From Ruditapes philippinarum (Eukaryota): a stretch of DNA of 64,000 nucleotides. This document shows positions 4,502 through 57,812 of this stretch, piece by piece (positions within the stretch are counted from its first letter, which is position 1; the number at the start of each line of letters is the position of its first letter). Under the pieces are notes generated by a model that was not told the origin of the DNA, did not search any database, and saw only the letters and a list, made by a program, of their open reading frames with translations. The DNA lies in the NCBI RefSeq assembly GCF_026571515.1, contig NW_026864070.1, positions 62,001 through 126,000 of the forward strand, given 5' to 3'. The position numbers were made by a program, and so were the translations under genes.

Positions 4502-6310
4502 GACTTGGATAAATTTCAAAAATTAAGAACTTTCAAGCTTCAACTGGTCAGTACATACGATTTTTCTACACTTTATAAAACACTTTTGCCACAATAATTA
4601 ATCAATGATAAACGAATTTCCTAATTCAGAAAACTTTTGCACGGGAAAAGGTTACCTTTCTAGCATGTAATTCTAACAAAGCTTTTTTACTAACGGTATT
4701 GTTAAACATTATACTATGTGGACCTGTGACGAAGTTTGTAGAGCACTCTCTTTTCTTTTAGACAACATTTATGTCAGGTTTGGTAATACCCTATTTAAAA
4801 AGATCATAGGAATTCCAATGGGTGCTAATTGTGCACCCCTGGTCGTAGATTTGTTTTTGTACTGCTATGAAAGAGACTTTATGTTAAGTCTCTCTGAAGA
4901 TAAACAACAAGATGTTATAGTCGCATTTAATAATACTTTCAGATACATTGATGATATTTTTAATTTGGATAATTCTTATTTTGATCAAATGGTTTCTGAC
5001 ATTTATCCGCACAAACTACAACTTAATATAACGAACTCTTGAAATTTTAGTACATCATTTTTGGATATTCATATTACTATCAACAACAATTCTATTCTGA
5101 TAAAAGAGATGACTTTGACTTTTGTATAGTTAATTATCCACACTTAGATGGAGACGTACCCATGCAACATGTTACGGGGTATATGTTTCTCAGTTGATTA
5201 GATTCGCTAGAGCTTGTAGCAATGAAAAGGATTTCAACGAGCGGAATATTTTTATTACCAGCAAGCTTCTAAAACAGGGCTACCGCTTCATAAATTACAG
5301 AAATATTTTTACTAAATTTTACAATCGTAATTTTGATTTAATTTCAAAATTCAATAGTGATTTAAAAACTCTTTTGCGACAAGGGATTAGCCAGCCTGGT
5401 TTTTATGGCGATGTGATTTACAAACTTCGTAAGATTTTGGGTCATGGTAATTTTTCTGCTGTTTTACTAAAATCATTAAACGTTTTATAAAAAGAGGTTA
5501 TGACCCTACTTTTTAAGACATACTGCATACTTAGTGTTCAACCATTTTACAGTTGGACACCACGCTTTCCTCTTTTGATTACATCTGACGGACCAAGTGG
5601 GAGACTCTACGATGGACAGTTCTTAAAGCCCTTTGGGACTGAATTGTCGTAATGTTCGTCTTCTGCCTTGCTTCGTCGGGCCCTTGTAGGTGATTTTCTT
5701 GTTGCTCTGTCTTCCTTTAGGACATAAAGTACTTTTGGTATGGTCTTCGGGTGTACTTTTATATGTTTCTACATGATCATTTTGGTGTTTTACTTATTTA
5801 ACCTTTTGTAACCATAACAACTTTTAGAATTTCACTTGGCGGGGATTCATTTTAATTACACTGTCTCGTTTATAGGAACATGGTTGGCTAAGAGCGAGGT
5901 TTGGTGCACCATTAACCGGTTTAAACTCACCAGCATTCATTTTTATGCCGCTGACCTTTCCAAGGCGGTGCCCCTCTCTGTTCCTCAGATGTATGTCTAT
6001 GTTGTTTCATACTGTTTTGGTGACACTTTTTCTTGTGTCCCTTGTTGTTTTCTCGTCTACGGTAAGTATCTTCCTATGTGCCCTTTGACTTTGTGGGCCT
6101 GTTGTTCGATCATTTATTTGTTTTCTTTGAATTCCTTATCAGTTACAAATTATGTATTCTTTTAGTGATTTAACTGTCCGTGCCCTGTCCTGTTTTTCGT
6201 TTGCGGTCCACCTGGGCTCCTTGCCACTGGCTCTTGTTGCTGGGTCGTGTGGGGGTTGCGTTCATTGAACGCCACCTTTCCTTGTTGATCTTTTTTATCA
6301 TATTTTTGCC
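4502..6310 (+). mobile_element. 5'-truncated, frameshifted Penelope-like retroelement (Naiad-type RT) with 3' tail, upstream of LRR copy A
   Basis: Motifs STYDFSTLY, GIPMGANCAPLVVDLFLYCYE, FRYIDD, DKRDDF and YGVYVSQLIRFARACS. The ORF ends near 5626 without a C-terminal GIY-YIG. It starts after TAAGGTACCAA, where B/B' copies (16337, 42050) have no insertion. Confidence 0.85.
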
Positions 6311-6598: not shown

Positions 6599-9386
6599 AT
6601 GTCTGTAAGACGATTTTCCTTTTTCCTATACATGCTTTGTCCATTCATCATTCAAGTTGGAACCAAAAATGTCACGTGCCCTGCCTCATGTGAATGCGAC
6701 ACTTTCTTTGGAAAAAAAGAAGTAGGTTGTGCTAACCTCACTGATGTTCCGTCAAATATTCCCGAGGACACCAATTTGCTAGATTTAAGTGGGTGTAATA
6801 TATCCCACATTCATATTCAGCCGCTGGAAAAGCTCTTCAAATTACAAATCTTCACCTTTCAGGAAATAAATACAAATGATGAGAATTACAATCTTACAGC
6901 CTTGGACTTGCCACTTCTGAATGAAATAGTCGTCGATGGCGGCGTTTCAACTTCTATCCCACAGCTGTTACCATCTTATATTGGTACGCTTAGTGTTGCA
7001 TATAACAATCTAGGAACACTAAAGTCTGGTAGTTTTAAGAACTACCCAAACTTAGAAACGTTATTATTGTGGGACTGTATGTTAATGAAATTAGAAGCTG
7101 GTGTGTTGGATAATATTCCTTCTCTTTCAACACTTGAGTTTAATAGAAACAATCTAAAAGATGACAGTTTTCCGTTGGGCGTATTCAAGAAAAACCAAGC
7201 ACTTGACTCTGTTTCATTTTTTGCAAATGAATTGAAACACGTAGTGTCCAATCTTCCAAGTTCTGTTACAAGTGTCGATTACAGCGCCAATACCATATTT
7301 GAGCTTCGAGCTTACGACTTCAAATCTACGCCGAATCTGATATACCTGTATCTTCAACAGAATATGGTATGCAAATTTCTTTTAATATTAAAATGTCATC
7401 GTTGTTAGTTATACATGTATATAAAACCAGGCAAATATAACTCGCAAAACAAACAAACAAACAAACAAACGAAAACGCGAACAACCATAGAGATATTGCA
7501 GATATCGTAATTTCCTTATTTCATACCAAACAACAGCCCACAAACGTTATGTTTAAACCAGAGTTGCATTTGATGGGTTAGACATACTAATCTCGTTGGA
7601 TTTGAGTTACAATAACATCAATAAATTATAGCATCAGTGTAGTTGAAACTTATTAATTTTATTGCTTCAAATACACGTTAAAACCAGTGAACAAATTATA
7701 TCTACATATATATACAGTAAGTAAATTATGAGAGGGGTAACATGTTCTACTAACATTAGATTAAGTCCGTCGTAAGTAATGTACCCAAAACAAAAATGAA
7801 TCTGCATACATATAAACATAAAAATCTTTAAAAGTGGAGATCCCTCGAGAACAGTGAGGGGAAGTATTTTAAATATGTAAATTACAAACTCGGTTTAATT
7901 GAGTCTGATGGGAAGGGTAACGGTTTTCACTCCCCCTAGCACCGGCTTTAGCACATATCAATCTTCAACACCATTTAGTTTTAGAATCAGTGAGTGACCG
8001 CGAAGATGTAGAAAATTTCATAAAACTGAAATTAAGTAGGAACAGCTTATTACTACTGCCATACACCACTTGACATCTGGTGACCCAGGATATTTCATTG
8101 AATTTATTCAGACAGTGGCATTCAGTGTTGTGTTAAAGATAAAAAGTTAACAGCACTTTGTTAAGAGTCTCATATATTTATTGTATCCACATCAAAAGTA
8201 AAAAGCATCATATTGATAGCCAATACTATATGAGCTATTACGATACTTGTAATATATAAGTATTGATGAAAATACAGATCAGGACTCAATAGACCATATT
8301 GTTTTACCAGACTCCGTGTTCATCAGAATAAATCAAATAATTACCATTGTCCTTCCTCATAGATTAGATATCAACTTGAAAAAACTGTACTAGAAATAGC
8401 ATGCTTAGAATAAATTCATTGTTACATTTGCAAGGAATGGGAATTTACAGTTGATCTAAATACCGATCTTGATTCTAAAATTGATTCTTATTTTAATCCG
8501 TTATTTTGGTATCTGTTTTGTTATTCGTCCATTTCATGCAAAAATAGATTTTCTTTTTTGAATAGAGAAAATATTAATCCCTTACGAAAATCCAAAATGT
8601 CAAAATTGAAAATGTTGCAGAGTCGGTTTAATTGAGCATGTACAGTGCAAACTACCGTCCATGCCCCTAACACCGGCTTAAGTAGAATTCAACATTTAAA
8701 CATGAAATGGCAAAATTTTGAATTAATAAACATCCGCAGATGTATTCATATGGCGGTTATCATGAAATCATCATTTTATTACATTTTGAGTATGTACCAT
8801 TTAATTTTAGCAAAATTTAGGTCATTTTGAGTTTTATTGCACAGTGAAAATTTAGACAGGATCAGTTAATCCTGATATTTTCTAAGTGAACACAGGGCCT
8901 TCTACACTATGCATTTTCATTAAAATACGATATATCCATTATCGATTTATTATAATTTATTTGTTCTTCCGCATTTCTGCATGAAGCAGAACAATCACTT
9001 TTACATATTATTTTCAGATTAACCAGTTGAAGGACTTTACGTTTGCCGGCTTAACTTCACCTTTAGAGCTGAATTTGTCATATAACTGGATAACAGCCAT
9101 TGCCAAAGATGCATTCAAATCATTACAATCAAGCAAGATTGACCTCAGTTTTAATAAGTTACAAAGTCTTCAAGCTGAGGTTTTCTCTCATCTTACAAGC
9201 AGTGCTAATGTAAATCTGGGTGGCAACTTGTGGAATTGTGATTGTCACCTAAGATGGTTGAGAGAAGCACTAGACAATGCCACTTATACCATTGAGCTTC
9301 CGTACACTCTTAAATGTGCAACACCAGTCAAGCTCGCAGGAAAGTCTTTCATTGATCTTAAACCAAGCGATTTTGTGTGTATGTAG
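6599..9386 (+). CDS. Secreted LRR-only protein, copy A (predicted 378 aa; exons 6599-7366 and 9018-9386; exon 2 destroyed; one LRR deleted in exon 3)
   Basis: Signal-like N-terminus, LRRNT CPASCEC..EVGC, LxxLxLxxN repeats and LRRCT NLWNCDCHLRWL..CATP..FVCM*. Acceptor AG 6593-94, donor GT 7367, acceptor AG 9016-17; phase-0 join keeps the frame. Confidence 0.8.
7564..7648 (+). pseudogene. Relic of LRR exon 2 in copy A (acceptor and donor ends deleted)
   Basis: TTGCATTTGATGGGTTAGACATACTAATCTCGTTGGATTTGAGTTACAATAACATCAATAAATTA matches the interior of exon 24530-24745. The flanking TTTCAG and AAG|GTAAAT are absent. Confidence 0.8.
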
Positions 9387-13777: not shown

Positions 13778-14980
13778 CAAGATATTACACGTGAGACTCG
13801 TGCATTTTCGTTACAAGTATTAAAATGGGATTATTTGCATATCGTATATTATACATATATTAGAATTTGACAATGTTGCGATTAATTTTGTATTATGAAA
13901 AGTAACGTATGTCAATAAGGCTGAAAAACGTACCATAATACTTAAATCAATATAACAGGCTCGGAATATTTCAGAAGTTTAAATAGCTACATGAGGTACA
14001 AAACGTTACAACTGGTGACAAAAATGATAATGTTGTTAACATTTATGTTCATTATTTCTTATGTCCAGGAAAGATTCAACGATGCAAAATATATGTTTAT
14101 TTGAATGCAACTTTCTCCTGATTTTTATAATTGTCGTTTATTACGAACCCTACTTTTCATTTGAACATTTGTATTTTTATAAAGGCATGTAGTGAACTTT
14201 TATTAAGATTTAAGTAACCGGTACAATATGTCCCATTCTTTTTGCATTTCATTAGATAGGTTAAGGCATAAAATTCTTCAATTTTCAGATAGCCTTTTGA
14301 TGCTTAAGTGTCTGTTAATGTGTATGTGCTTCTAGTTTGTCCACTTAAACATTCTTTTCAATGTAAAAAAAAGTTACACCCCCCAAAAAAAAATTATACA
14401 CCTTTTATTGTTTGGTTATAAAAATCTCCTGCGATCTAGGCTATAATTTAGCTTTGTTTGTATCAAACTGTGGCCTATTTTAAATGTACTTTATACTTCT
14501 TCCGTATACATACCGTGTCAAACACTACATGATAGAAATTTAAATGTAGGTCAGACGCTAGCATTTATTTTCCCATAGACTTACATTATGAGAGATGGTC
14601 ACTTATCCCACATTAAATTTGAGCTTTCCTGCTGAAGAAGTGATTTTTCTAGGAGAATGAAATGCCTGACACATAAAAATGACAAATTGAATTGAAATTT
14701 TCTGCTGATCACTGGACTGACATGCACTGTTTATTAATGCAAATATCCAAGTAAAAAATAATCATAGAGAATCATGAAATATTTCATTTTCTTTAGAAAA
14801 CAATACAGTGTTAGATTCTAAATTAGTTTTCATACTTAAAAACATCCCATTTTCTTCCAATCACCTCATGTCCCACTGAATCTTATGGTTTTATGTACAG
14901 ATTCAATCAAACCATGTCTGCAATTCTCTTGTAATTTTGTTGTGATTAATACTTCCGAGGGATCACTTTGTTTCCAGATT

Positions 14981-15267
14981 TTTATACTTCACAACAGCAG
15001 GTGTCAAGTGCTGTGTGGCAGCTGTAAAAAGTTGCCCCGTTCTTCACTTCAGTGTTGTTATATTTTTCTGGTCCTTCGGGATCATAGATGCCAGCACTAT
15101 TAAGTGTTGAGAATTGAGTACCGCTCAAGCCGGTGCTAGGGGGCGTGAGGGATTTGCACGTATTCATTATCCCTCATGAACAGACTCAATCAAACCGAGA
15201 CTGCAATTCTCTTGTAATTTTGTTTTGATTAATGCTTCCGAGGGATCACTTTGTTTCCAGATTTTTT
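14981..15267. mobile_element. ~290-bp unclassified non-autonomous element (full-length copy, preceded by a partial copy at 14890-14980)
   Basis: Near-identical to the reverse complement of 52150-52440. Absent at the matching unit-2 position (~39830). Older partial copies lie at 3400-3630, 18070-18275, 25255-25470 and 30360-30580. Confidence 0.75.
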
Positions 15268-16448
15268 TTCTTTTTCCCTGCACTTTTTTAGCCAATCGCT
15301 GGCGATGTTGCAACGCAAAAGTATGACCTGCATTGGTTTTTTTTATTGTTTTAAGTGTATAATGCTGTATCTTATGAAATATTGCTATAAAATCATTCAA
15401 CAGTAAAATTATATTGCTGAATCTTATGATCCATTCTCGAAAGATTTGTAACATAGAATGCACACGGATAACGTTTTAATTAACAAACATTTTATAGTGT
15501 TGAAAAAATAGAAATCTATTTATTTACTTATTTACTTGTTTGTTTGATTATTTATTTATTTATTTATTTTCAAATTAAAGTAATACTCAGTATACAATCA
15601 AAAATCATTTATGATAAGTTTATCAATCTAAACAGCAAAACTTTCATTCAGCTTAGAAATACAAAACTTTGTGCAAAAAGCAATATTTTCTATTAATATT
15701 TTTTATCTCTTCTTTTTACAGTTTTTTGCATTTGTTTTTGAAAAGTACAAGTAGTTTTAACCGCTCCAAAATGTAAGAAACATTTTTAGTTTATCTGCAA
15801 ATGAAGTTAATTATAAAGAAACATTTTTTTAGATTTAAAACAAAATAACGGCGCGAGTGTTTGACCTTAAATATATAAAATTCAAGAATGCCATATTTTG
15901 TTTTGGTGTTACAACACTTTGTTTCTATATATTGGTTGTTATCAGCGTGAATTATTTTGATGATATGCGTTCCTAGATCCGCTGGTATTAGGCTTCAGGT
16001 ATTCCATTGATGTATATATTCTTTCATTTCATACATAAATAAAAGAGGAAGTCTTCTCCTATTTCTACAAATAGTTACTATGGAATTTTTCAGGCACGTT
16101 ACGCTTATTCTTTTAAGATTAAACAAAAGATATTCATTCTGCAAGTTTGAAACACAAAACGGATTATAAAATTGATGAGTATTTTCCAGTTTATTTAATA
16201 ATTTAACTCATCTCTCATCACATGTAAGTATTCTTTAAAACTATTTCTTTTTTCTCATTATTAAAACATACAATGTAAATTATTTAATTTAGACTGTTTA
16301 TAACAATGGTCATATATATGATTATACTATCTAAGATACCAAGCATACACCACCTTTTCATCATATGAAAAATATATCTCGAGCCCGATGATTCGAACAT
16401 TACAATTAATTTATACTGAAATAAACAAAAATGAAGAGTATGTTTAAT

Positions 16449-16789: not shown

Positions 16790-19291
16790 ATGTCTGTAAG
16801 ACGATTTTCCTTTTTTCAATATATGCTTTGTCCGTTCATCGTTCAAGCTGTAACCAAAAATGTCACGTGTCCTGCCTCATGTGAATGCGATATTTTCTTT
16901 GACATAAAGGAAGTAGAGTGTGCTAACCTCACTGATGTTCCGTCAAATATTCCCGAGGACACCAATTGGCTAGATTTAAGCGGGTGTAATATATCCCACA
17001 TTCATATTCAACCGCTGGAAAAGCTCTTCAAATTACAAATCCTCACCTTTCAGGAAATAAATACAATTGACGAGAATTACAATCTTACGGCCTTGGACTT
17101 GCCATTTCTAAATGAAATAGTCGTCGAAGGCGGCGTTTCTACTTCTATCCCACAGCTGTTACCACCTTATATTGGAACGCTTAATGTAGGAGAAAACAAT
17201 CTAGGCACTCTAAAGTCTGGTAGCTTTAAGAACTACCCAAACTTAGAAACGTTAACTTTGTGGGACTGTATGTTAACGAAATTAGAAGCTGGTGTGTTGG
17301 ATGATATTCCTTCCCTTTCCTCACTTGAGTTTCATAGCAACAATCTAAACAAAGACAGTTTTCCTTTGGACGTATTCAAGAAAAACCAAGCACTTGACTC
17401 TGTTTCATTTTTTGATAATGAATTGAAACACGTAGTGTCCAATCTTCCAAGTTCTGTTACAAGTGTCGATTACAGCGACAATGCCATTTTTGAGCTTAGA
17501 GCTTATGACTTCAAATCTACGCCGAATCTGATATGCTTGTATTTTCTACAAAATATGGTATGAAAATTACTGTTCATGTGAAAATGTCGTCATTGTTAGA
17601 GATATATATAAAATCATGCATGTAATACTCTAACAACAATCGCAAAACAAACAAACAAACATAGAAAGCATATATTAATATATCTATTTGTCTTTTTCTT
17701 ACTGCATTGAGGTTTTATTATTAAGTCATAAAATGTCATGTTTAGTCATTTGATTACTAGATTTTACAAGAACGATATTTTTACAAAGGAGTATTAGTAA
17801 ACGTAAACGACCATGGAGTTTAACTTTAACTCCATTATGGGCCCCTTTTAGTTCTTATTATTTCACTTATTTCATGTCCTTCCCCTTCTTTCACCACCCT
17901 TGATTCCTCTACCGGTTTTGGTTCGGTGCACTCTGGGTGCCCTGCTGTTGTAGGGGGCTGCATCCTGTGAACGTTCCCTTTGCCTTGTTGATCTTTGTTC
18001 TCGTTTGTTTTCTCAATAAATTAAATCTGATGGAATGTGTAAGTATTCTCACGTCCCATAAGAACGGCTCTGTGTTGTTATATTTTTCTGGTACTTCAGG
18101 ATCATTGATGCCAGCACTATTAAGTGTTGAGAATTGAGTACTGCTCAAGCCGGTGCTCGGGGGCGTGAGGGATGTTGCACTCATTCATTATCCCTCATGT
18201 ATAGACTTAGTCAAACCGAGTCTTCAATTTACACGTAATTATTTTGTGATTAATGCTTCCGAAGGATCACTTTGTCATAAAGCAACCTTCAAAACCATTA
18301 TGTTTTGGCATTAGTGAGTGACCGCGTAGGTCTAGAAATGTCTTGTTTACTAAACTGAAGTTAAGTAAGAGCAATTTTAACACCTGCCACACAGCACTTG
18401 ATACCTGCTGACCCCATAATATTACGTGACTGAATTGAGACAAACAGTAACATTCAGAATTGTTGTTAAATGTCAAAAGTTAGTAGCACTTTGTTAATAT
18501 TCTATTATACAAGATAATAATGAACAACATTTCATAATTCTATTATTTTTTTTCATGTTATTAATAAAGTACATCTATTATATTCACTATCCACAAAAAA
18601 GTAAGTAAAATATCATATTGATGCATACATATGTGTTTACTACCATTATTAAAATTTGTGTTGGTTCTAAGAGTAGTTTCGAAGTGAATATTAGTATTGA
18701 TACAAAAATAAATCATATAGACCATACTATAATACCTGTTTCTAAACTCATGCATGTTCATTAATATTCTTATATCATTATACTATCAACTATTTGTCCT
18801 TCCGCATTAAATCATGAAGCAGAACAATCATATTTACATAATATTTTCAGATTGCACATTTGGAGGACTTTACCTTTCAAAGCATGGTCAATTTACAAAT
18901 CCTGGACATGAGTTACAACAATTTATCTGCAGTTACTAATAATACGTTTGCCGGGTTAACTTCACGTTTATGGCTGAATTTGTCATATAATTGGATAACA
19001 GCCATTGCCCAAGATGCATTCAAATCATTGCAATCAAGCAGGATTGACCTCAGTTTTAATAGGTTACAAAGTCTTCAGGTTGAGATTTTCTCTCATCTTA
19101 CAAGCACAGCTAATGTAAGACTAGCTGGCAACTTGTGGAATTGTGATTGTCACCTAAGGTGGTTGAGAGAAGCACTGGACAATGCCACTTATACCATTGA
19201 GCTTCCGTACACTCTGAAATGTGCAACACCAGTCAAGCTCGCAGGAAAGTCTTTCATTGATCTTAAACCAAGCGATTTTGTGTGTATGTAG
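16790..19291 (+). CDS. Secreted LRR-only protein, copy B (predicted 402 aa; exons 16790-17557 and 18851-19291; exon 2 cleanly deleted)
   Basis: Both exons are open (768 and 441 nt) with canonical GT at 17558 and AG at 18849-50. At ~17820 the intron jumps from CCATGGAGTT to sequence found downstream of exon 2 in copy C (~25000). Confidence 0.8.
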
Positions 19292-23280: not shown

Positions 23281-26200
23281 ATGTCTTTTAGACGATTTTC
23301 CTGTTTTCTATACATGCTTTGTCCGTTCATCGTGCAAGCTGTTACCAAAGATATCACGTGTCCTGCCTCATGTGAATGTGAAACTATCTTTGGCGCAAAG
23401 GAAGTAGATTGTTATAACCTCACTGATTTTCCATCAAATATTCCTGAGGACACCAATTACCTAGATTTAAGTGGGTGTAATATATTCCACATTCCTATTC
23501 AGCCACTGGAAAAGCTCTTCAAATTACAAAGGTTCGCCTTTCAGGAAATAAATACAAATGAGGATAATTACAATCTAAGGGCCCTGAACTTACCACTCCT
23601 GAATGAAATAGTCGTCGATGGCGGCGTTTCAACTTCTATCCCACAACTGTTACCACCTTATATTAGTACGCTTAGCGTAGCAGAAAACAATCTAGGCACT
23701 CTAAAGTCTGGTAGCTTTAGAAACTATCCAAACTTAGATTCGTTATTTTTGTCGGACTGTATGTTAACGAAATTAGAATCTGGTGTGTTGGATGATATTC
23801 CATCTCTTTCATTACTTCAGTTTAATGACAACAATCTAAACGAAGATAGTTTTCCTTTGGACGTATTCAAGAAAAACCAAGCACTTGAGTCTGTTTCATT
23901 TTTTGATAATGAATTGAAACACGTAGTGTCCAATCTTCCAAGTTCTGTTACAAGTGTCGATTACAGCGGCAATGCCATTTTTGAGCTTAGAGCTTATGAC
24001 TTTAAATCTACACCGAAACTGATATACTTATCTTCAACAAAATATGGTATGAAAATTACTGTTATGNNNNNNNNNNNNNNNNNNNNNNNNNNNNNNNNNN
24101 NNNNNNNNNNNNNNNNNNNNNNNNNNNNNNNNNNNNNNNNNNNNNNNNNNNNNNNNNNNNNNNNNNNNNNNNNNNNNNNNNNNNNNNNNNNNNNNNNNNN
24201 NNNNNNNNNNNNNNNNNNNNNNNNNNNNNGCAAAACAAACCAACAAACACAGAAACCATAAATTAAAATATCGTTATCTGTTTTTTCTTCTAACTGAATT
24301 GAGGTTTTGAAAATTATTAAATTATAAAATGTCACGGTTAGTCATTTGATTACTAGTTTTTACAAGAACGATATTTTACAAAGGAGTAGAAACTAAACGA
24401 AAACGCAAACGACTATGGAGTTATTACAATTATTAGAATTTCCCTTGCTCATACCAAGGTCTCCACAAACAACAGTCTACAAATGTTATGTTTATACCAG
24501 AGCTGAATATATTACAACGTTTATTTCAGATCACAAATGTTGAAGACTTTGCGTTTGATGGGTTAGACAAACAAATCTCGTTGGATATGAGTTACAATAA
24601 CATCAATAAATTAAGCAGAAACACATTAGCTGGGTTAACAGGAGCGTATTCACTACATATGAGTAGTAATAACATAAGTGTTGTGGATAAAGATGCATTT
24701 ACACAACTCGTCTCTTTACATGATCTCAAACTAGACCAAAACAAGGTAAATATTAAAAAGAATCCTCTTGATTAAACTAATCTTATTTTATTGCTTCAAA
24801 TACACGTAATAACCTATATAAAAATTACAACAACATGTAATATATTGGTTAGGTTACAAGTTCTTCTAACACTAGATAAAGCCCTTCGTATGTCATTACC
24901 CAAGAAGAAAATTGTGTCTGCACACAAATAAACAAACAAATCGGAAAGAAGGGAGATCCCTCGAGAGCAATGAAAAGAAGCAGTTGTCCCTTGTCCCTTT
25001 AATTCCCTTATGGGCCCCTTTAAGTTTTTATCATTTCACTTATTTCATGCCCCTCCCCTTCTTTCGCCACCCTTGATTCATCTACCGATTTGTTTCTGTG
25101 CCTTCTGGATGCCCTGATGTTGCAGCAAGGTGTTGGGGGGCTGCGTCCTGTGAAGGTTGCCTTTGCCTTGTTGATCTTTGTTCTCGTTTGTTTTCTCAAT
25201 TAATTACATGTGATGGAATGTGTAAGTTTTCTCACGTCCCTTAAGAACGGCTCAGTGTTGTTATATTTTTCTGGTACTTAGGTATCATTGATGCCAGCAC
25301 TTTTAAGTGTTGAGAATTGAGTACCGCTCAAGCCAGTGCTAGGGCACGTGAGGGATGTTGCATTCATTCATTATCCCCCATGTACAGCTTTAGTCAAACA
25401 AAGTCTGCAAATTTCATGTAATTCTGTTGTAATTAAGTCTTCCGAGGGATAACTTTGTTTCCAGATTTTTAAGCATAAATCAACCTTCAACACCATTATG
25501 TTTTTGCATCTGTTAGTGAACGCGTAGGTATAGACAAAAAACAATTTACTAAACTGAAGTAAAGTAAGATCATTTCTTAAACCTGCTTTACAGCACTTGA
25601 CACCTGCTGACTCCATGATATAACGTGATTGAATTGAAACAGACAGTAACATTTTATATTGTTGTTAAATGTCAAAAGTTAGCAGCACTTTGTTAAGACT
25701 CTGTTATACAAGATAATAACGAACAACATTTCATAATTCTATTTTTTGTCATGTTATTAACAGAGTACCTTTATTGTATCCACTATCCACATAAAAAGTA
25801 AGTAAAAATCATATTGATGCATACATATGTGTACTTCCATTATTAATATTTGAGTTAATACAATACTTTTATTCTAAAAGTAGTTTCTAAGTGAAAATAA
25901 GTATTGATACAAAAACAAATCATATAGACCATACTATAATACCTGTTTCTAAACTCACGCATGTTCATTAATATTCTTAAATAAATTTGTTATAAACTAA
26001 TTGTCTTCCGCATTTAAGCCAGAAGCAAAACAATCATATTTACATAATATTTTCAGATTGTACATTTGGAGGACTTTACCTTTCAAAGCATGGTCGATTT
26101 ACAAAACCTGGACATGAGTCACAACAATTTGTCTGCAGTTACTAATAATACGTTTGTCGGGTTAACTTCACTTTTATGGTTGAATTTGTCATATAACTGG

Positions 26201-26497
26201 ATAACAACCATTGCCCAAGATGCATTCAAATCATTACAATCAAGCGACATTGACCTCAGTTTTAATAGGTTACAAAGTCTTCAGGTTGAGGTTTTCTCTC
26301 ATCTTACAAGCACAGCTAATGTAAGACTAGCTGGCAACTTGTGGAATTGTGATTGTCACCTAAGGTGGTTGAGAGAAGCACTGGACAATGCCACTTATAC
26401 CATTGAGCTTCCGTACACTCTCAAATGTGCAACACCAGTCAAGCTCGCAGGAAAGTCTTTCATTGATCTTAAACCAAGCGATTTTGTGTGTATGTAG
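23281..26497 (+). CDS. Secreted LRR-only protein, copy C (exons 23281-24046, 24530-24745, 26057-26497; 474 aa if a 2-nt deletion near 24030 is an error, otherwise a pseudogene)
   Basis: All splice sites are canonical, and exons 2 and 3 are intact. ATACTTATCTTC here versus ATACTTGTATCTTC in B' and C' gives a -2 frameshift about 35 bp from an N gap. Confidence 0.7.
24067..24229. other. Assembly gap (N run) in intron of copy C
   Basis: N run. The corresponding stretch in C' (~51095-51153) is short and TA-rich. Confidence 0.9.
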
Positions 26498-29544: not shown

Positions 29545-30132
29545 TCAGACTGCACGGATGTGTATGCTAATCTGGTCAGACTGCACGGATGTGTATGCTA
29601 ATCTGGTCAGACAGCACGGATGTGTATGCTTATCTGGTCAGACTGCACGGATGTGTATGCTAATCTGGTCAGACTGCACGGATGTGTTTGCTAATCTGGT
29701 CAGACTGCACGGATGTGTATGCTAATCTGGTCAGACTGCACGGATGTGTATGCTAATCTGGTCAGACTGCACGGATGTGTATGCTAATCTGGTCAGACTG
29801 CACGGATGTGTATGCTAATCTGGTCAGACTGAACGGATGTGTATGCTAATCTGGTCAGACTACACGGATGTGTATGCTAATCTGGTCAGACAGCACGGAT
29901 GTGTATGCTTCTCTGGTCAGACTGCACGGATGTGTATGCTAATCTGGTCAGACTGCACGGATGTGTATGCTAATCTGGTCAGACAGCACGGATGTGTATC
30001 CTTTTCTTGTTAGACTGCACGGATGTGTATGCTAATCTGGCCAGACTGTACGGATGTGTATGCTAATCTGGTCAGACTGCACGGAAGTGTATGCTAATCT
30101 GGTCAGACTGCACGTATGTGTATGCTTTTCTG
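29545..30132 (+). repeat. 31-bp minisatellite, ~19 copies (TCAGACTGCACGGATGTGTATGCTAATCTGG)
   Basis: Direct tandem repeats with period 31 (29545, 29576, …) and no spacers. A single monomer lies at ~3148-3180 in unit 1. Confidence 0.95.
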
Positions 30133-33532: not shown

Positions 33533-35285
33533 ATGTCTGTAAGACGATTTTCCTTTTTCCTATACATGTTTTGTCCGTTCATCATTCAAGTTGGAACCAA
33601 AAATGTCACGTGCCCTGCTTCATGTGAATGCGACACTTTCTTTGGTAAAAAAGAAGTAGGTTGTGCTAACCTCACTGATGTTCCGTCAAATATTCCCGAG
33701 GACACCAATTGGCTAGATTTAAGTGGGTGTAATATATCCTACATTCATATTCAGCCGCTGGAAAAGCTCTTCAAATTACAAATCTTCACCTTTCAGGAAA
33801 TAAATACAAATGATGAGAATTATAATCTTACAGCCTTGGACTTGCCACTTCTGAATGAAATAGTCGTCGAAGGCGGCGTTTCAACTTCTATCCCACAGCT
33901 GTTACCATCTTATATTGGTGAGCTTAGTGTAGCATATAACAATCTAGGCACTCTAAAGTCTAAAATCTGGTAGTTTTAAGAACTACCCAAACTTAGAAAC
34001 GTTATTATTGTGGGACTGTATGTTAATGAAATTAGAAGCTGATGTGTTTGATGATATTCCTTCTCTTTCAACACTTGAGTTTAATAGAAACAATCTAAAA
34101 GATGACAGTTTTCCGTTGGATGTATTCAAGAAAAACCAAGCACTAGACTCTGTTTCATTTTTTGCAAATGAATTGAAACACGTAGTGTCCAATCTTCCAA
34201 GTTCTGTTACAAGTGTCGATTACAGCGCTAATACCATATTTGAGCTTCGAGCTTACGACTTCAAATCTACGCCGAATCTGATATACCTGTATCTTCAACA
34301 GAATATGGTATGAAAATTACTTTTAATATTAAAATGTCATCGTTGTTAGTTATACATGTATATAAAACCAGGCAAATATAACTCTGAAACAATCGCAAAA
34401 CAAACAAACAAACGAAAACGCGAACAATCATAGATATTTTACAGATATCGTAATTTCCTAACTTCATACCAAACCATCCACAAACAACAGCCCATCAATG
34501 TTATATTTATACCAGAGTTGCATTTGATGGGTCAGACATACTAATCTCGTTGGATTTGAGTTACAATAGCAATAAAGTATAGCAGTAGTAGTGTAGTTGA
34601 TAACGGTGCATTTAGAAAACTGTTGTCTTGACATGATTTCAAACTAGATTAATAAACATCCGCAGATGTATTCATATGACGGTTATAATGAAATCATCAT
34701 TTTATTACATTTTGAGTATGGACCATTTAATTCTAGCAAAATTTAGATCAATTTTAGTTTTTATTGCACAGTGAAAATTTAAACAGGATCATTTGATCCA
34801 TCTTTTCTAAGTGAACACAGGGCCGTCTAAACTATGCATTTTCATATAAATTATTAAATAAATTATTTGTTCTTCCGCATTTCTGCATGAAGCAGAACAA
34901 TCACTGTTACATATTATTTTGAGATTAACCATTTGGAGGACTTTACGTTCGCAGGGTTAACTTCACCTTTAGAGCTGGATTTGTCATATAACTGGATAAC
35001 AGCTATTGCCAAAGATGCATTCAAACCATTAAGATTGACCTCAGTTTTAATAAGTTACAAAGTCTTCAGGCTGAGGTTTTCTCTCATCTTACAAGCAGTG
35101 CTAATGTAAATGTAGGTGGCAACTTGTGGAATTGTGATTGTCACCTAAGGTGGTTGAGAGAAGCACTGGACAATGCCTGGACCTATACCATTGAGCTTCC
35201 GTACACTCTCAAATGTGCAACACCAGTCAAGCTCGCAGGAAAGTCTTTCATTGATCTTAAACCAAGCGATTTTGTGTGTATGTAG
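33533..35285 (+). pseudogene. LRR copy A', pseudogene (exons 33533-34307 and 34924-35285; exon-2 relic ~34518-34650)
   Basis: 7-nt duplication TAAAGTC/TAAAATC at ~33960 (frameshift), 10-nt deletion at ~35030 (ACAATCAAGC), +3 nt at ~35178, and acceptor weakened to TTTTGAG. Shares the 72-nt LRR deletion of copy A. Confidence 0.85.
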
Positions 35286-42489: not shown

Positions 42490-45400
42490 ATGTCTGTAAG
42501 ACGATTTTCCTTTTTTCTATATATGCTTTGTCCGTTCATCGTTCAAGCTGTAACTAAAAATGTCACGTGTCCTGCCTCATGTGAATGCGACACTTTCTTT
42601 GGAATGAAGGAAGTAGATTGTGCTAACCTCACTGATATTCCGTCAAATATTCCCGAAAACACCAATTGGCTAGATTTAAGCGGGTGTAATATATCCCACA
42701 TTCATATTCAACCTCTGGAAAAGCTCTTCAAATTACAAATCTTCACCTTTCAGGAAATAAATACAAATGAAGAGAATTACAATCTTACGGCCCTGGACTT
42801 GCCACTTCTGAATGAAATAGTCGTCGATGGCGGCGTTTCTACTTCTATCCCACAACTGTTACCATCTTATATTGGTGCGCTTAGTGTAGCATATAACAAT
42901 CTAGGAACTCTAAAGTCTGGAAGCTTTAGGAACTACCCAAACTTAGAAACGTTAAGTTTGTGGGACTGTATGTTAACGGAATTAGAAGCTGGTGTGTTGG
43001 ATGATATTCCTTCTCTTTCCTCACTTGAGTTCAATAGCAACAATCTAAACGAAGACAGTTTTCCTTTGGACGTATTCAAGAAAAACCAAGCACTTGACTC
43101 TGTTTCATTTTTTGATAATGAATTGAAACACGTAGTGTCCAATCTTCCAAGTTCTGTTACAAGTGTCGATTACAGCGACAATGCCATTTTTGAGCTTAGA
43201 GCTTATGACTTCAAATCTACGCCGAATCTGATATACTTGTATCTTCAACAAAATATGGTATGAAAATTACTGTTCATGTGAAAATGTCGTCATTGTTATA
43301 TATATATACTTATATATAAAACCATGCATATAATTCTTTCAAAAGAATTGCAAAACAAACAAAAACACATAGAAAGCATAAATAAACATAGCGATATCTG
43401 TCTTTTTCTTACTACACTCATGTTTTGGCAATTATTAAATCACAAAATGTCACGTTTAGTCATTTGATTACTAGATTTTACAAGAACGATATTTTTACAA
43501 AGGAGTATTAGTAAATGTAAACGACCATGAAGTTATTACATTTATTAAAATTTCCTTAGCTCATACCAAGGTATCCACAAACAACAGTCTACAAATGTTT
43601 ATACCAGTGTTGAATATAAATATTACAACGTTTATTTCAGATCACAAATGTTGAAGACTTTGCTTTTGATGGGTTAGACAAACAAATTTCGTTGGATATG
43701 AGTTACAATAACATCAATAAATTAAGCAGAAACACATTAGCTGGGTTAACAGGAGTCTATGAATTACATATGAGTGGTAATAACATCAGTGTCGTAGATA
43801 AAAATGCATTTAGACAACTCGTCTCTGTAAATGATCTCAAACTAGATCAAAACAAGGTAAATATTACAAAGACTCCTCTTGATGAAACTTATTTCTTTTT
43901 ATAGCTTCAAATACACGAAATAACCAATATATAAATAACAACAACACGTAAACATCAAAATATTGGTTGGGTTACCATGGCAGAGTTATGCCCCTTTTAC
44001 TTTGAAAATAATATGAAATTTTCAGTTTCCGTCCATTATCTCCCCAACGGTACAACACATTCAACTCAAACTTGACAAATGGATATGTCATGAGAATTCG
44101 AATTTGGTCATGGTTTGATGATTTTTGGCAGAGTTATGCCCCTTTTACTTTGAAAATAATATGAAATTTTCAGTTTCCGTTCATTATCTCCCCAACGGTA
44201 CAACACATTCAACTCAAACTTGACATATGGATATGTCATGATAAAATACAGGTCAAGTACGATTTTGGTTATGGTTCAATGATTTTTTGCAGAGTAATGT
44301 CCCTTTTACTTTGAAAATAATGTGAAATTTTCAGTTTCTGTTCATTATCCCCAATAGTGTTACATATTCAACTCAAATTTGACATATGGATATGTCAAAG
44401 GAATGCGCAGGTCAAGTTGGAATTTGGTCATGGTTCGATGATTTTTGGTAGAGTTATGTCCCTTTCACTTTGAAAATAATTTGAAATTTTCAGTTTCCAT
44501 TCGTTATCTCCTCTAGGGTATTACACATTCAACTCAGATTTGACATATGGATACGTCAAAGGAATGCACAGGTCAAGTTTGAATTTTGTCATTATTCAAT
44601 GATTTTTTTGCAGAGTTATGCCCCTTTAACTTTGAAAGAAAAGAAATTTTCAGTTCCCTTTCATTATCTCCCCAACATATTCAACTCAAATTAAAGATAT
44701 GGATATGTCATAAGAATGCATTGGTCAATTTCGAATTTAATCATGGTTTGATGATAGCTGGCAGACTTATCTCTCTTGAACTTTGAATTTTAAGTTTACG
44801 TTCATTATCTCCCCAATGGTTGTACACATTCAACTTAAATTTCACATATAGATACATCTTAGGAATAAGCAGTTCAAGTTTGAATTTGGTCGTGGTTCAA
44901 TGATTTTGGACAAACTTATCTTTCTTGAATGTTGGAAAAATTTTGAATTTTCAGTTTCAGCACTCATACTTTTGTGGAAATGTATGTGGCCATTATTTTG
45001 GCTACAAATATGCAATATGCAATTTACAAAAGGTTAAGACTGAATAATTTCAGTGCCTTTAACAGTGTATAACAATGGTTTATGTTAACATTGAATAGTT
45101 TTAAGGTCTTGGCATGATGACACATTTCTAGTTAATACTCTATTATACAAGATAATAACGAACAACATTTCATAATTCTATTTTTTGTCATGTTATTAAT
45201 AGAGTACATTTATTGTATCCACTATCCACAAAAAAGTAAGTAAAATATCATATTGATGCATACATATGTGTTTACTATCATTATTAAAATTTGAGTTGGT
45301 ACACTACTTTTATTCTAAGAGTAGTTTCGAAGTGAATATAAGTATTGATACAAAATCAAATCATATAGACCATACTATAATACCTGTTTCTAAACTCATG

Positions 45401-45939
45401 CATGTTCATTAATATTCTTATATCATTATACTATCAACTATTTGTCCTTCCGCATTTAATCATGAAGCAGAACAATCATATTTACATAATATTTTCAGAT
45501 TGTACAGTTGGAGGACTTTACCTTTCAAAGCATGGTCGATTTACAAAACCTGGACATGAGTTACAACAATTTATCTGCAGTTACTAATAATACTTTTGCC
45601 GGGTTAACCTCACTTTTGTGGTTCAACTTGTCATATAACTGGATAACAACCATTGCGCAAGATGCATTCAAATCACTCAAATCAAGCGACATTGACCTCA
45701 GTTTTAATAGGTTACAAAGTCTTCAGGTTGAGGTTTTCTCTCATCTTACAAGCACAGCTAATGTAAGACTAGCTGGCAACTTGTGGAATTGTGATTGTCA
45801 CCTAAGATGGTTGAGAGAAGCACTGGACAATGCCACTTATACCATTGAGCTTCCGTACACTCTCAAATGTGCAACACCAGTCAAGGTCGCAGGAAAATCT
45901 TTCATTGATCTTAAACCAAGCGATTTTGTGTGTATGTAG
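42490..45939 (+). CDS. Secreted LRR-only protein, copy B', intact full-length form (474 aa; exons 42490-43257, 43641-43856, 45499-45939)
   Basis: Exons of 768, 216 and 441 nt are all open, with phase-0 GT-AG introns. Signal peptide, LRRNT, ~16 LRR strands, LRRCT, and a stop right after the last Cys-Met. Confidence 0.88.
43980..44960. repeat. ~160-bp tandem array (~6.5 copies), Helentron/HINE-like internal repeats, in the last intron of B'
   Basis: Units begin CAGAGTTATGCCCCTTT at about 43981, 44129, 44290, 44450, 44610, 44762 and 44910. Absent from the other copies. Confidence 0.8.
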
Positions 45940-50300: not shown

Positions 50301-53300
50301 ATGTCTTTTAGACGATTTTCCTGTTTTCTATACATGCTTTGTCCGTTCATCGTGCAAGCTGTTACCAAAAATATCACGTGTCCTGTTCTCATGTGAATGT
50401 GAAACTATCTTTGGCGCAAAGGAAGTTAGATTGTTATAACCTCACTGATGTTCCATCAAATATTCCTGAGGACACAATTACCTAGATTTAAGTGGGTGTA
50501 ATATATCCCACATTCCTATTCAGCCACTGGAAAAGCTCTTCAAAATTACAAAAAGGTCGCCTTTCAGGAAATAAATACAAATGAGGAGAATTACAATCTA
50601 AAGACCCTGAACTTACCACTCCTGAATGAAATAGTCGTCGATGGCGGCGTTTCAACTTCTATCCCACAACTGTTACCACCTTATATTTAGTACGCTTAGC
50701 GTAGCAGAAAACAATCTAGGCACTCTAAAAGTCTGGTAGCTTTAGAAACTATCCAAACTTAGATTCGTTATTTTTGTCGGACTGTATGTTAACGAAATTA
50801 GAAGCTGGTGTGTTGGATGATATACCATCTCTTTCATTACTTCAGTTCAATGACAACAATCTAAACGAAGATAGTTTTCCTTTGGACGTATTCAAGAAAA
50901 ACCAAGCACTTGACTCTGTTTCATTTTTTGATAATGAATTGAAACACGTAGTGTCCAATCTTCCAAGTTCTGTTACAAGTATCGATTACAGCGGCAATGC
51001 CATTTTTGAGCTTAGAGCTTATGACTTCAAATCTACGCCGAATCTGATATACTTGTATCTTCAACAAAAATATGGTATGAAAATTACTGTTCATGTGAAA
51101 ATGTCGTCATTGTTATATATATTTATATATAAAATCATGCATAAAATACTATTGCAAAACAAACCAACAAACATAGAAACCATAAATTAAAATATCGTTA
51201 TCTGTCTTTTTTTCTTACTGAATTGAGGTTTTTGAAAATTATTAAATTATAAAATGGCACGGCTAGTCATTTGATTACTAAGATTTTACAAAGAACGATA
51301 TTTTACAAAGGAGTAGAAACTTAACGAAAACGCAAACGACTATGGAGTTATTTTTTAAAATTATTAGAATTTTCCCTTGCTCATACCAAGGTCTCCACAA
51401 ACATCAGTCTACAAATGTTATGTTTATACCAGAGCTGAATATATTACCAACGTTTATTTCAGATCACAAATGTTGAAGACTTTGCGTTTGATGGGTTAGA
51501 CAAAAAACAAATCTCGTTGGATATGAGTTACAATAACATCAATAAATTAACGGGAAACACATTAGCTGGGTTAACAGGAGCGTATGAATTACATATGAGT
51601 AGTAATAACATCAGTGTTGTGGATAAAGATGCATTTAGACAACTCGTCTCTTTACATGATCTCAAACTAGACCAAAACAAGGTAAATATTAAAAAGAATC
51701 CTCTTGATTAAACTTATTTTATTTTATTGCTTCAAATACACCTAATAACCTATATAAAAATTACAACAACATGTAATATATTGGTTAGGTTACAAGTTCT
51801 TCTAACACTAGATAAAGCCCTTCGTATGTCATGTACCCAAGACAAAATTGTGTCTGCATACAAATAAACAAACAAATCGGACAGAAGGGAGATCTCTCGA
51901 GAGCAATGAAAAGAAGCAGTTGTCCCTTGTCCCTTATGGGCCCCTTTTAGTTTTTATCATTTCACTTATTTCATGCCCCTCCCCTCCTTTCGCCACCCTT
52001 GATTCATCTACCGATTTGTTTCGGTGCCTTCTGGATGCCCTGATGTTGAAGCTGAGGTGTTGGGGGGCTGCGTCCTGTGAAGGTTGCCTTTGCCTTGTTG
52101 ATCTTTGTTCTCGTTTGTTTTCTCATTTAATTACATGTGATGGAATGTGTAAAAAATTCTGGAAACAAAGTGATCCCTCGGAAGCATTAATCACAACAAA
52201 ATAACATAAGAATTGCAGACTCGGTTTGATTGAGTCTGTACATGAGGGATTATGTATAAGTGCAACATCCCTCACGCCCCCTAGCACCGGCTTGAGCGGT
52301 ACTCAATTCTCAACACTTTATAGTGTTGGCATCAATGATCCCGAAGGACCAGAAAATATAACAACACTGAAGTGAAGTACGGGGCAACTTTTTACGGCTG
52401 CCACACGGCACTTGACACCTGCTGTTGTGAAGTACAAAATTTTTCTCACGTCCCATAAGAACGGCTCAGTGTTGTTATATTTTTCTGGTACTTAGGTATC
52501 ATTGATGCCAGCACTTTTAAGTGTTGAGAATTGAGTACTTGCTCAAGCCAGTGCTAGGGCACGTGAGGGATGTTGCATTCATTCATTACCCCCATGTACA
52601 GCTTTAGTCAAACAAAGTCTGCAAATTTTCATGTAATTCTTGTTGTAATTAAGTCTTCGAGGGATAATTTTGTTTTCCAGATTTTTAAGCATAAACAACC
52701 TTCAACACCATTATGTTTTTGCATCTGTTAGTGAACGCGTAGGTTAAAGACAAAAAACTCTTTTACTAAACTGAAGTAAAGTAAGAGCATTTCTTAAACC
52801 TGCTTTACAAGCACTTGACAACATGCTGACTCCATGAAATTACATGATTGAATTGAGACAGACAGTAACATTCAGTTTTGTTGTTAAATGTTCAAAAGTT
52901 AGCAGCACTATTGTTAAGACTCTGTTATACAAGATAATAACGAACAACATTTCATAATTCTATTTTTTGTCATGTTATTAATAGAGTACATTTATTTTTC
53001 CAGCTATTTCCCCAAAATTAATTTAAAATTGAATTTTATTGATCCCAAAAATATTTTGATTACTATCATTATTAAAATTTGAGTTGATACAATACTTTTA
53101 TTCTAAGAGTAGTGTCGAAGTGAATATAAGTATTGATACAAAAACAAATTATATATACTATTACACAAGTTTCTAAACTCATGCATGTTTATTAATATTC
53201 TAAAATAAATCTCTAATAAACTAATTGTCCTTCCGCATTTAAGCAAGAAGCAGAACAATCATATTTACATAATATTTTCAGATTGCACAGTTGGAGGACT

Positions 53301-53722
53301 TTACCTTTCAAAGCATGGTCGATTTACAAAACCTGGACATGAGTCACAACAATTTATCTGCAATTACTAATGATACGTTTGTCGGGTTGACTTCACTTTT
53401 ATGGTTGAATTTGTCATATAACTGGATTACAACCATTGCCCAAGATGCATTCAAATCATTGCAATCAAGCGACATTAACCTCAGTTTTAATAGGTTACAA
53501 AATCTGAAAGCTGAGGTTTTCTCTCATCTTACAAGCACAGCTAATGTAAGACTTGCTGGCAACTTGTGGAATTGTGATTGTCACCTAAGGTGGTTGAGAG
53601 AAGCACTGGACAATGCCACTTATACCATTGAGCTTCCGTACACTCTCAAATGTGCAACACCAGTCAAGCTCGCAGAAAAGTCTTTCATTGATCTTAAACC
53701 AAGCGATTTTGTATGTATGTAG
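50301..53722 (+). pseudogene. LRR copy C' (exons 50301-51074, 51463-51681, 53282-53722); exon 1 frameshifted as assembled, possibly a real gene with consensus errors
   Basis: About 7 single-base indels in exon 1, mostly homopolymer length changes (GAAGTTAGA, CAAAATT, TATATTTAG, CTAAAAGTC, CAAAAATATG). Splice sites are intact; exon 2 (+3 nt, in frame) and exon 3 are open. Confidence 0.65.
52150..52440. mobile_element. ~290-bp non-autonomous element inserted in the last intron of C'
   Basis: Absent in copy C (25223 GTGTAAGTTTTCTCACG). Reverse complement of 14981-15267. Confidence 0.8.
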
Positions 53723-57005: not shown

Positions 57006-57812
57006 AATACAGTTGACTCTCAATAAGTCAAAATCGTTTTACTCAAAATTCCGCTTTAGTCGAAGAACTTCTAAAATCCCGTCAAATTTCCTTCTTATCT
57101 TTGTATTTTAACTCAGCTTAGGTCAAATTTTGACTTATCGAGACTCCTATTTAGTCTGTTTTATGAACATCAACTTCATACAATACTGTTGTTTTAATTC
57201 TTTCGAGGAATTATTGGCCTGATTTTCCAAAATGCTTATACTTCACATCAGCAATAGTCAAATGACATGTGGCAGCTGCAAAAAGTTGCCCGATACTTCA
57301 CTTCAACTTCTCTGGTCAATCAGAATTATTAGCACATTAGTTAGTTTTGAAGATACCGCATGAGACATGTTACACTTTTACATAATTTGTTATGAACAGA
57401 CATTATCAAACCGGGTCTGCATATAATTTTCATATAATATTCTTGTTTTACTGCTCTCGGGGAATCTCCCTTTTCCAGATTTTTATTGCATACACAAAAA
57501 ACAAGTAATTAGATACCATAGTTATCATAAACATGTGTATAACTGTGTCAATAAATTTGTTTACTTATTTTACCCGACAGAACGTCTTAATATTGCCTTT
57601 TTAAAATATAGTTCTCATGTCACCAGCTGAATAATTTCTGTGGCAGCTCTGTTATTCAGACGGTGGAAATTTAATTGCTTTAACTCGACATTTACGGAGG
57701 GATAAAACATTATAGTTACATGAATGGAAAATATTGTTCGTAATAGGATGAAATGGTTAATTGTATGCTTAAATATAAAATAAGAAGAACTATTCATACA
57801 TTTCTTTTGTGC

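Follow-up and report, generated by a model that had tools for sequence, protein, structure and literature searches.

A tandem array of predicted secreted LRR-only genes in the Manila clam whose concave face evolves faster than its outer face

The window analysed here, a stretch of 64,000 nucleotides of AT-rich DNA (positions 62,001 to 126,000 of contig NW_026864070.1, RefSeq assembly GCF_026571515.1) whose RefSeq protein matches are named Ruditapes philippinarum, contains six tandem copies of a multi-exon LRR-only gene, all on the same (+) strand and spaced 6.5-10.3 kb apart. In copy 1, the first exon (exon A; 6599..7366 (+), 256 codons) ends in a phase-0 GT donor and encodes a predicted signal peptide, an LRRNT cap and repeats 1-9, with a Pfam match to LRR_8. 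The predicted signal peptide (6599..6664 (+), codons 1-22) corresponds to a hydrophobic N-terminus judged by eye. It is followed by the LRRNT cap (6665..6769 (+)), which carries C27, C31, C33 and C44 and a hairpin whose codon 39 (6713-6715) reads K, I, A or M across the copies. Further downstream, a 48-nt stretch (7226..7273 (+), codons 210-225) encodes the ELKHVVSNLPSSVTS linker. Beyond exon A lies the decayed remnant of a middle exon with its acceptor deleted (7564..7650 (+), ends approximate), followed by the last exon (9018..9386 (+)), which falls short of its counterparts in copies 2, 3, 5 and 6 by 72 nt, i.e., one repeat, and which encodes an LRRCT of 50 codons (9234..9383 (+)). Copy 1 as a whole has an open 378-aa, 12-repeat frame.

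Two further copies are intact. Copy 5 (42490..45939 (+); exons 42490-43257, 43641-43856 and 45499-45939), when spliced, consists of three coding exons of 256 + 72 + 146 codons with an open 474-aa, 16-repeat frame that equals RefSeq protein P0047, and copy 2 (16790..19291 (+); exons 16790-17557 and 18851-19291), which is without the middle exon, has an open 402-aa, 13-repeat frame that equals P0051. The remaining copies run into early stops by frameshift. Copy 3 (23281..26497 (+); exons 23281-24046, 24530-24745 and 26057-26497) has lost 2 nt close to where exon A ends, with an assembly gap (24067-24229) beginning about 40 nt past the deletion. Copy 4 (33533..35285 (+); exons 33533-34307 and 34924-35285), the sister of copy 1, combines a 7-nt insertion, a weakened acceptor and a 10-nt deletion, and is likely a pseudogene. 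Copy 6 (50301..53722 (+); exons 50301-51074, 51463-51681 and 53282-53722), the sister of copy 3, bears eight single-base indels in exon A, which could mark a pseudogene or be sequencing errors, and which look like read errors. Among reads placed on the copy-5 reference, the 12 indels listed out of 33 and half of the 40 variants listed out of 400 fall in an intron repeat or the 3' flank. Three additional proteins of 474 aa each (P0001, P0046 and P0307), recorded on a contig equal in length to that of the window (145,137 bases), match no window copy; the whole array is thus likely to have at least nine members, those beyond the window being known from proteins.

Repeat number, a variation missed by the earlier note on this DNA, differs among the copies, with 16 repeats in copies 3, 5 and 6, 13 in copy 2 and 12 in copies 1 and 4. 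The 216-nt middle exon, which supplies three repeats, is present in copies 3, 5 and 6 only; copies 1 and 4 retain just a remnant of it, and are also without 72 nt of the last exon. This exon is likely to have arisen as an internal duplication of venerids that was lost again in some copies, because it resembles the start of the last exon (25/72 residues alike) and is found in the Mercenaria protein P0002 while missing from 20/20 outer relatives. Four public runs, of which one is recorded as RNA and three are guessed to be RNA, were compared with copy 5. In three of the four, RNA contigs of the gene family lack both copy-5 introns, with the junctions at GT-AG. The fourth run gives one contig of 1138 nt that passes from exon A to the last exon beyond the 72-nt gap, with 20 letters between and no gaps. 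Since this contig joins exon A to the short last exon and carries the diagnostic letters of copies 1/4, it shows that transcripts of the 12-repeat form are made and spliced. Letters of the copy 1/4 and copy 3/6 types both occur in RNA contigs, and the window contains no convincing counterpart of a 5' leader present on one of the RNA contigs.

The domain order of the encoded protein is a hydrophobic N-terminus, LRRNT, repeats and LRRCT followed by the stop, and the Pfam matches on the three exon translations are to LRR and LRRCT only. An AlphaFold2 model of copy 5, made with a 25-sequence alignment, is a single 16-strand solenoid (pLDDT 91, pTM 0.85) whose strands coincide with the register assigned from sequence (60-65, 84-87, 109-113, 130-134, 154-158, 178-182 and on), while a low-confidence helix at 8-24 lies at the predicted signal peptide. 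The N-terminal hydropathy peak is 1.36 in copy 5 and below 1.03 in copy 2; beyond residue 30, no segment of 19 residues exceeds 1.1 in the same scan, and the stop directly follows the LRRCT. Inspection by Pfam and hydropathy reveals neither the transmembrane helix nor the TIR domain of Toll-like receptors, and the C-terminal coiled coil typical of APL1/LRIM proteins is absent from both the model and the frames. The VLRs of jawless vertebrates have a C-terminal stalk and membrane anchor, neither of which is found here, the protein stopping two residues past the last LRRCT cysteine region. On these defining features, together with the completeness of the genes, the identification of the array as VLR, TLR or APL1 was rejected.

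Searches with the protein provide little further discrimination. Fold and PDB sequence searches return generic LRR likeness only, at 15-28% identity in the fold list; the best PDB sequence match is ALS, over residues 236-388 only, and the best fold match is LRIG1 (24% identity). A representative-protein search recovers mostly giant generic LRR proteins and an Atlas search unrelated LRR clusters. The RefSeq labels IGFALS, SLIT and LRRC70 likewise reflect generic LRR likeness and, differing as they do among near-identical copies, have no functional meaning.

The positions at which the copies differ were placed in the register LxxLxLxxNxL, with positions 2, 3, 5, 7 and 8 as concave and 1, 4, 6, 9 and 11 as core, and were counted in the six copies over the 402 codons of exons A+B, with masking of indel codons, of 8 codons in copy 6 and of 9 in copy 4. 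Variable sites make up 30/65 of the concave positions, as against 7/65 in the core and 36/152 at other repeat positions (one-sided Fisher p=0.001); the corresponding counts are 11/35 in the LRRNT, 7/22 in the signal and 2/50 in the LRRCT. A fairer comparator is the non-hydrophobic, or exposed, convex class, defined by residue type and not by computed accessibility, in which 30/107 sites vary (two-sided p=0.021). These counts bear out the proposal of the earlier note that amino-acid differences concentrate at the exposed x positions of the strands. Every variant listed there is present in the sequence; some of them, namely the F/L of QIFTF/QILTF, the P/R/L of PLELNL and the F/L of LLWFNL, are core positions. 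Exon A carries the excess (22/45 concave vs 22/101, p=0.001), mostly in repeats 4-6, and neither the last exon alone (8/20 vs 14/51, p=0.23) nor the middle exon alone (3/15 vs 5/39, p=0.39) is significant. Of the concave sites, 35/65 never vary while others take 3-4 residues.

The same note had described the linkers as nearly identical and the LRRCT, there given as about 55 aa, as almost frozen, and had counted both toward a pattern of diversifying selection. Within the window the ELKHVVSNLPSSVTS linker is invariant at the DNA level over its 48 nt in all six copies, but in sequences from outside it changes at three positions, 211, 216 and 222, varying in P0306 and P0307. The near-constancy of the LRRCT holds, with dN/dS 0.05 across the copies; its use as a sign of diversifying selection does not, since this region is the most conserved one family-wide, with an 84% majority share in 20 outer relatives and 35/49 residues identical to Mercenaria. 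Its constancy is mostly due to purifying selection, an old trait common to the whole family, with perhaps some homogenisation: the synonymous rate in the LRRCT is 0.46-fold, a borderline result (LRT 4.3; tree-free p=0.09). In the VLRs of jawless vertebrates, LRRCT inserts vary, unlike the frozen LRRCT of the clam.

Rates were estimated with our own implementation of the GY94 codon likelihood (F3x4), using separate IQ-TREE trees for the two exons and naive empirical Bayes for sites. By class, dN/dS is 1.08 for concave positions, 0.66 for the LRRNT, 0.47 for exposed convex positions, 0.44 for the signal, 0.31 for buried convex positions and 0.17 for the core, which like the LRRCT is under purifying selection. 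The difference between concave and exposed convex positions, the contrast by which the earlier note proposed to judge its claim, is strong (LRT 14.8, p=1.2e-4), and it persists when double-nucleotide changes are allowed (p=9e-4 and 3e-3), the concave value then becoming 0.99 and 0.89. Tree-free minimum counts agree, with 0.31 replacement changes per concave site vs 0.13 per exposed convex site (p=2e-4), and the excess remains with the intact copies 1, 2 and 5 alone (p=0.002). That the concave face evolves faster than the convex face can therefore be regarded as firm. As a class, the concave positions are not different from 1 (p=0.66), a range of about 0.67-1.45 not being rejected.

Site models without multi-nucleotide change favor a fraction of codons above 1 (M2a/M1a p=0.0125, M8/M7 p=0.009, M8/M8a p=0.0025), placing 3.6-4.1% of codons at dN/dS about 4.5, and the support remains without copies 4 and 6 (p=0.002) and with the intact copies 1, 2 and 5 (p=0.023); it is not significant per exon (p=0.10 and 0.11). 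Seven of the 10 best sites are concave, while concave positions account for 65/402 codons, although the best-scoring site, codon 330, is not concave. A mixture model within the concave class assigns a quarter of its sites a dN/dS of 3.5-3.8 (p=0.004 without double changes). In exon A the fast concave codons under this model, with naive empirical Bayes posteriors of 0.60-0.99, are, in copy 1 (6776..7288 (+)), codons 60 (6776), 84 (6848), 130 (6986), 135 (7001), 156 (7064), 178 (7130), 183 (7145) and 230 (7286). Power is low throughout, there being six sequences, three of them with broken frames.

Multi-nucleotide mutations are a known cause of false-positive selection signals (bioRxiv 10.1101/165969), and 13 columns here, 9 of them concave, require two or three bases to change in one step. 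Once the double-change rate is left free, the signal vanishes (M2a/M1a p=0.29; concave-class test p=0.32), and this model improves on the single-change null (LRT 15.6) at a fitted rate of 7.9%. In non-coding paralogous DNA of the window, by contrast, adjacent doubles amount to only some 2.6% (20 in excess, from 13,734 columns with 769 mismatches), and with an intron-calibrated rate fixed at 2.2%, M2a/M1a gives p=0.065 when run over all sites and, for the concave class by itself, p=0.034. The gap between the two faces survives double-change rates and the M2a/M1a result does not; hence "faster" is firm, and dN/dS above the neutral value at concave sites is suggestive only. The earlier reading of diversifying selection on a binding surface is accordingly sustained for the relative rates and, by both the class value and the site models, including the M7/M8 comparison it proposed, left suggestive for values above 1. 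These results give room to an explanation by relaxed constraint, under which the ancestral ligand was lost and the concave face drifts at dN/dS about 1 while the fold and LRRCT are kept, with multi-nucleotide mutations imitating sites above 1. The concave-class values of 0.89-1.08, the disappearance of the site signal under the free model and the broken state of 3/6 copies are all in line with this. On the other side, the free model requires far more doubles than non-coding DNA shows, and drift would sit poorly with the 35/65 concave sites that stay invariant.

The concave class had been named by a reader who had seen the window copies, and a held-out test was therefore run on eight proteins from outside the window, namely three RefSeq copies and five JGI fragments, which are relatives and some of whose assemblies may contain errors. 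The set includes P0307 and P0308; P0246, which equals window copy 4 and is misaligned over the middle exon, was left out. These sequences bring 50 residues unseen in the window, of which 16 fall on the 80 concave sites vs 10 on the 134 exposed convex sites (p=0.011). Further, of the 15 new concave residues in exons A+B, 7 lie on the 12 sites already flagged (p=0.012), new residues appearing at codons 60, 84, 135, 178 and 183, a return to the same sites that again argues against relaxed constraint.

A comparison with Mercenaria extends the contrast to an older divergence. The array groups with Mercenaria P0002 in a separate clade on a long branch (support 100/100), and between copy 5 and P0002 only 21/80 concave positions (0.26) are identical, as against 69/134 convex ones. 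In an outer-type pair from the same two species (P0064 and P0061; support 98/95) the relation is reversed, with 50/65 concave (0.77) and 67/109 convex positions identical, giving a face x gene interaction of z=3.9 (p=1e-4); the one-to-one orthology of both pairs is assumed from the tree, and the array branch is longer overall. The concave excess is thus seen at three time scales, among the window copies, in the held-out sequences and relative to Mercenaria.

This recurrence also bears on whether the pattern might be an artefact of assembly errors, of an uncollapsed second haplotype or of gene conversion. Copies 4-6 do repeat the layout of copies 1-3 about 27 kb further on at 89-94% identity, copy 6 has its eight indels, codons 126 and 135 do not fit the exon tree, and the exon A and last-exon trees (IQ-TREE) differ. 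Errors and conversion are, however, blind to the repeat register, and the excess holds tree-free, in intact copies only, in other samples and against Mercenaria. Moreover, a home-made PHI-like test finds no clustering of incompatible sites (p=0.25-0.86), and the diagnostic letters of the copy 1/4 and 3/6 types recur in RNA contigs. We regard an artefactual origin as very improbable.

The true relatives of the array, at 30-38% identity, constitute a lophotrochozoan secreted LRR family of proteins of about 400-415 aa from Mercenaria, Mya, Mactra, oysters, Mytilus and Lingula, labelled in RefSeq as 'slit-like', 'podocan-like', 'FLRT3-like' or 'ALS-like'. They share with the array the LRRNT, the repeat spacing and the LRRCT, with 38 invariant columns in 25 sequences, and differ from it in that the array has three extra repeats, groups in its own clade and has replaced concave residues. 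Over 190 pairs of outer relatives the mean identity of the concave (0.45) and convex (0.43) positions is alike. By majority, the concave residues R208, F209, V229, G230, W253, D275 and W394 are near-invariant in the 20 outer relatives, from clams to Lingula, and the array has replaced all of them except D275, a loss which would also be expected under relaxed constraint. Variants of outer-type genes at the concave face number 0/65 in nine Ruditapes sequences and 2/65 in 14 oyster sequences, with 5/65 and 6/65 in two other clusters (not significant).

The Mytilus members qualify the drift scenario from another direction. Paralogues there share 15-24/65 concave residues (in one comparison 16/65 concave vs 50/110 convex), yet each type keeps 60-63/65 between species. 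Since these faces differ between paralogues and are nevertheless kept between species, a face that has changed can, in this family, remain subject to selection. Weighing this with the evidence above, we consider relaxed constraint an unlikely, if substantial, alternative for the clam array. The Mytilus pattern of change after duplication followed by freezing would fit fixed specificities, as expected if the copies were proteins of matrix, shell or gametes or of the inhibitor type that had, after duplication, each come to bind a host ligand of its own without a microbial arms race. The short-long-long repeat pattern and vertebrate matches are podocan-like, and the neighbours found by language model comprise LRR carriers and inhibitors along with immune LRR proteins of mosquitoes. 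Nonetheless, young copies that are 80-97% alike, the additional variants found in other samples, frequent gene death and changes in repeat number would better fit a moving target, and specialisation on host partners appears rather improbable, more so than relaxed constraint.

Comparable patterns are known from unrelated or distantly similar systems. The plant PGIPs are described as secreted LRR proteins encoded in small clusters with pseudogenes, with variation mainly in the exposed xxLxLxx region and positively selected sites (PMC4115169). The array resembles them in being a cluster of predicted secreted LRR genes with probable pseudogenes and xxLxLxx variation, and positively selected sites are suggested in it, with no sequence relationship expected; PGIP ligands are known fungal enzymes, whereas any ligand of the clam proteins is putative. 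The tandem secreted LRR genes of Anopheles, APL1/LRIM1, are reported to show very high replacement diversity and gene conversion (PMC3050937; PMC9222773). Features of the PGIP/APL1 type found in the array are tandem paralogues with births and deaths and the enrichment of replacements at xxLxLxx exposed positions. APL1, however, ends in a coiled coil (PMC3050937) while the clam proteins end at the LRRCT, and immune function is shown for APL1 only. The amphioxus VLR-like protein Bf66946 is described as binding Gram-positive bacteria via acidic concave residues (PMC4731796); VLRs and Bf66946 resemble the array in their LRRNT-LRR-LRRCT horseshoe and variable repeat number, and the clam face is, like the concave residues of Bf66946, acidic. 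The VLR, according to the same source, is an incomplete germline gene assembled somatically from flanking cassettes (PMC4731796), whereas the clam copies are complete germline multi-exon genes of 12-16 repeats with GT-AG introns and have no cassette library and no stalk or anchor.

Closer to home, the scallop LRR-only proteins CfLRRop-1 to -6 are summarised in a review as being induced by and binding microbial patterns (PMC5877582); they too are bivalve proteins consisting of LRRs only, likened here by description and not by sequence. The LRR genes mentioned in the main text of a challenge transcriptome of the Manila clam are different ones (PMC7430831). We found no report of this array or family in the open-licence literature on clam, bivalve and invertebrate LRR genes; most work on bivalve immunity appears in subscription journals, so a prior report is possible. 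Taken together, the observation is real and likely a new example of the known pattern of PGIP, APL1 and VLR-like proteins.

The array encodes a predicted secreted LRR-only family whose concave face evolves about twice as fast as its outer face. With modest confidence, we attribute this to selection for novel binding specificities, acting on roughly a dozen sites and leaving the scaffold and caps intact. The ancestor would have been a roughly 405-aa LRR protein of bivalves and brachiopods with a conserved concave site. A venerid copy may have gained three repeats and lost the conserved concave residues, thereafter multiplying in Ruditapes by tandem duplication and losses in a birth-and-death process. 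The product of each gene would be secreted as a soluble horseshoe that grips its target by an acidic, aromatic concave face; in copy 5 this face has 18 D/E, 12 aromatic and 2 K/R residues among 80 positions. The concave sheet is the putative binding site by what is general in LRR biology, and its make-up would match a target that is a basic protein or a polymer of the cell surface; substitutions, like differences in repeat number, may tune what target fits. By analogy with PGIP, APL1 and the amphioxus VLR-like protein, the most likely target would be a variable foreign molecule, such as a microbial surface or a secreted parasite enzyme, and on this analogy we lean toward selection for new specificities against variable foreign ligands.

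A bolder and distinctly more tentative proposal is that this is an undescribed lophotrochozoan secreted LRR family whose ancient face is kept in most lineages and was re-invented after duplication, independently in venerid clams and mussels. The Manila clam might then possess a germline, VLR-like repertoire in which both concave residues and repeat number (12, 13 or 16) vary so as to keep pace with microbes or with parasites like Perkinsus. The pattern as such is already familiar from plant and insect LRR genes and is useful to specialists more than it is surprising. For a farmed clam, it supplies a concrete and expressed candidate recognition family, with some dozen residues and three naturally occurring length forms as candidates for binding. 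Finally, a single family that combines a conserved ancestral face with a rapidly evolving derived one provides a clean system for how LRR proteins gain specificity.

The six tandem gene copies do not share a constant number of LRRs, having 12, 13 or 16, and the differences stem from two changes: a phase-0 exon encoding three repeats was lost, and 72 nt were deleted in frame. The sites concerned lie at 7564-7650, 9018-9040, the 17820 region, 24530-24745, 43641-43856 and 51463-51681, and the 12-repeat form is seen in the spliced state in an RNA contig. Contigs from public RNA runs that were compared with copy 5 also begin with a 5' leader, upstream of 42489, for which the compared stretch offers no alignment. 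A search for the leader motif across the window gave no convincing match, and hence the first exon may lie outside the window or differ.

At a larger scale, a block of ~27 kb looks to have been doubled, with copies 1-3 matched by copies 4-6: the stretches 3143-25225 and 30096-52152 are 89-94% identical in their non-coding portions. This apparent doubling may represent either a segmental duplication or a second haplotype. A minisatellite of 31-nt units at 29544-30126 (18.8 copies, 93%) marks the junction of the two three-gene blocks. Copies 1 and 4 are each preceded by disrupted reading frames of reverse-transcriptase-like type (4677-5490 and 31605-32701), which have been duplicated along with these copies; the motifs in these frames are reminiscent of Penelope-like elements, and a Pfam search with the two copy-1 fragments returned no match. 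Further, arrays of ~160-170-nt units are found at 43980-45110, within an intron of copy 5, and at 56127-57009; they are likely a mobile satellite-like repeat, and the former is highly abundant among the RNA-run contigs. Additionally, a 290-nt element occurs in opposite orientations at 14980-15268 and 52151-52439 (93% identity), and is present in an intron of copy 6 as an insertion relative to copy 3.

Beyond the clam, mussels possess several paralogues of this LRR family (P0286-P0298, Mytilus), which, judging by their accessions and the lengths of their contigs, are apparently neighbours in the genome. Their concave faces are very different between paralogues, yet each is kept across Mytilus species. 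The outer relatives, which lie outside the subfamily of the array, constitute an unnamed family of secreted LRR proteins of 400-415 aa ranging from bivalves to Lingula (P0053-P0072). In the 25-sequence alignment A1, their concave residues are near-invariant in repeats 6-10 and 14-16, a pattern of sequence conservation pointing to a putative ancient conserved ligand.
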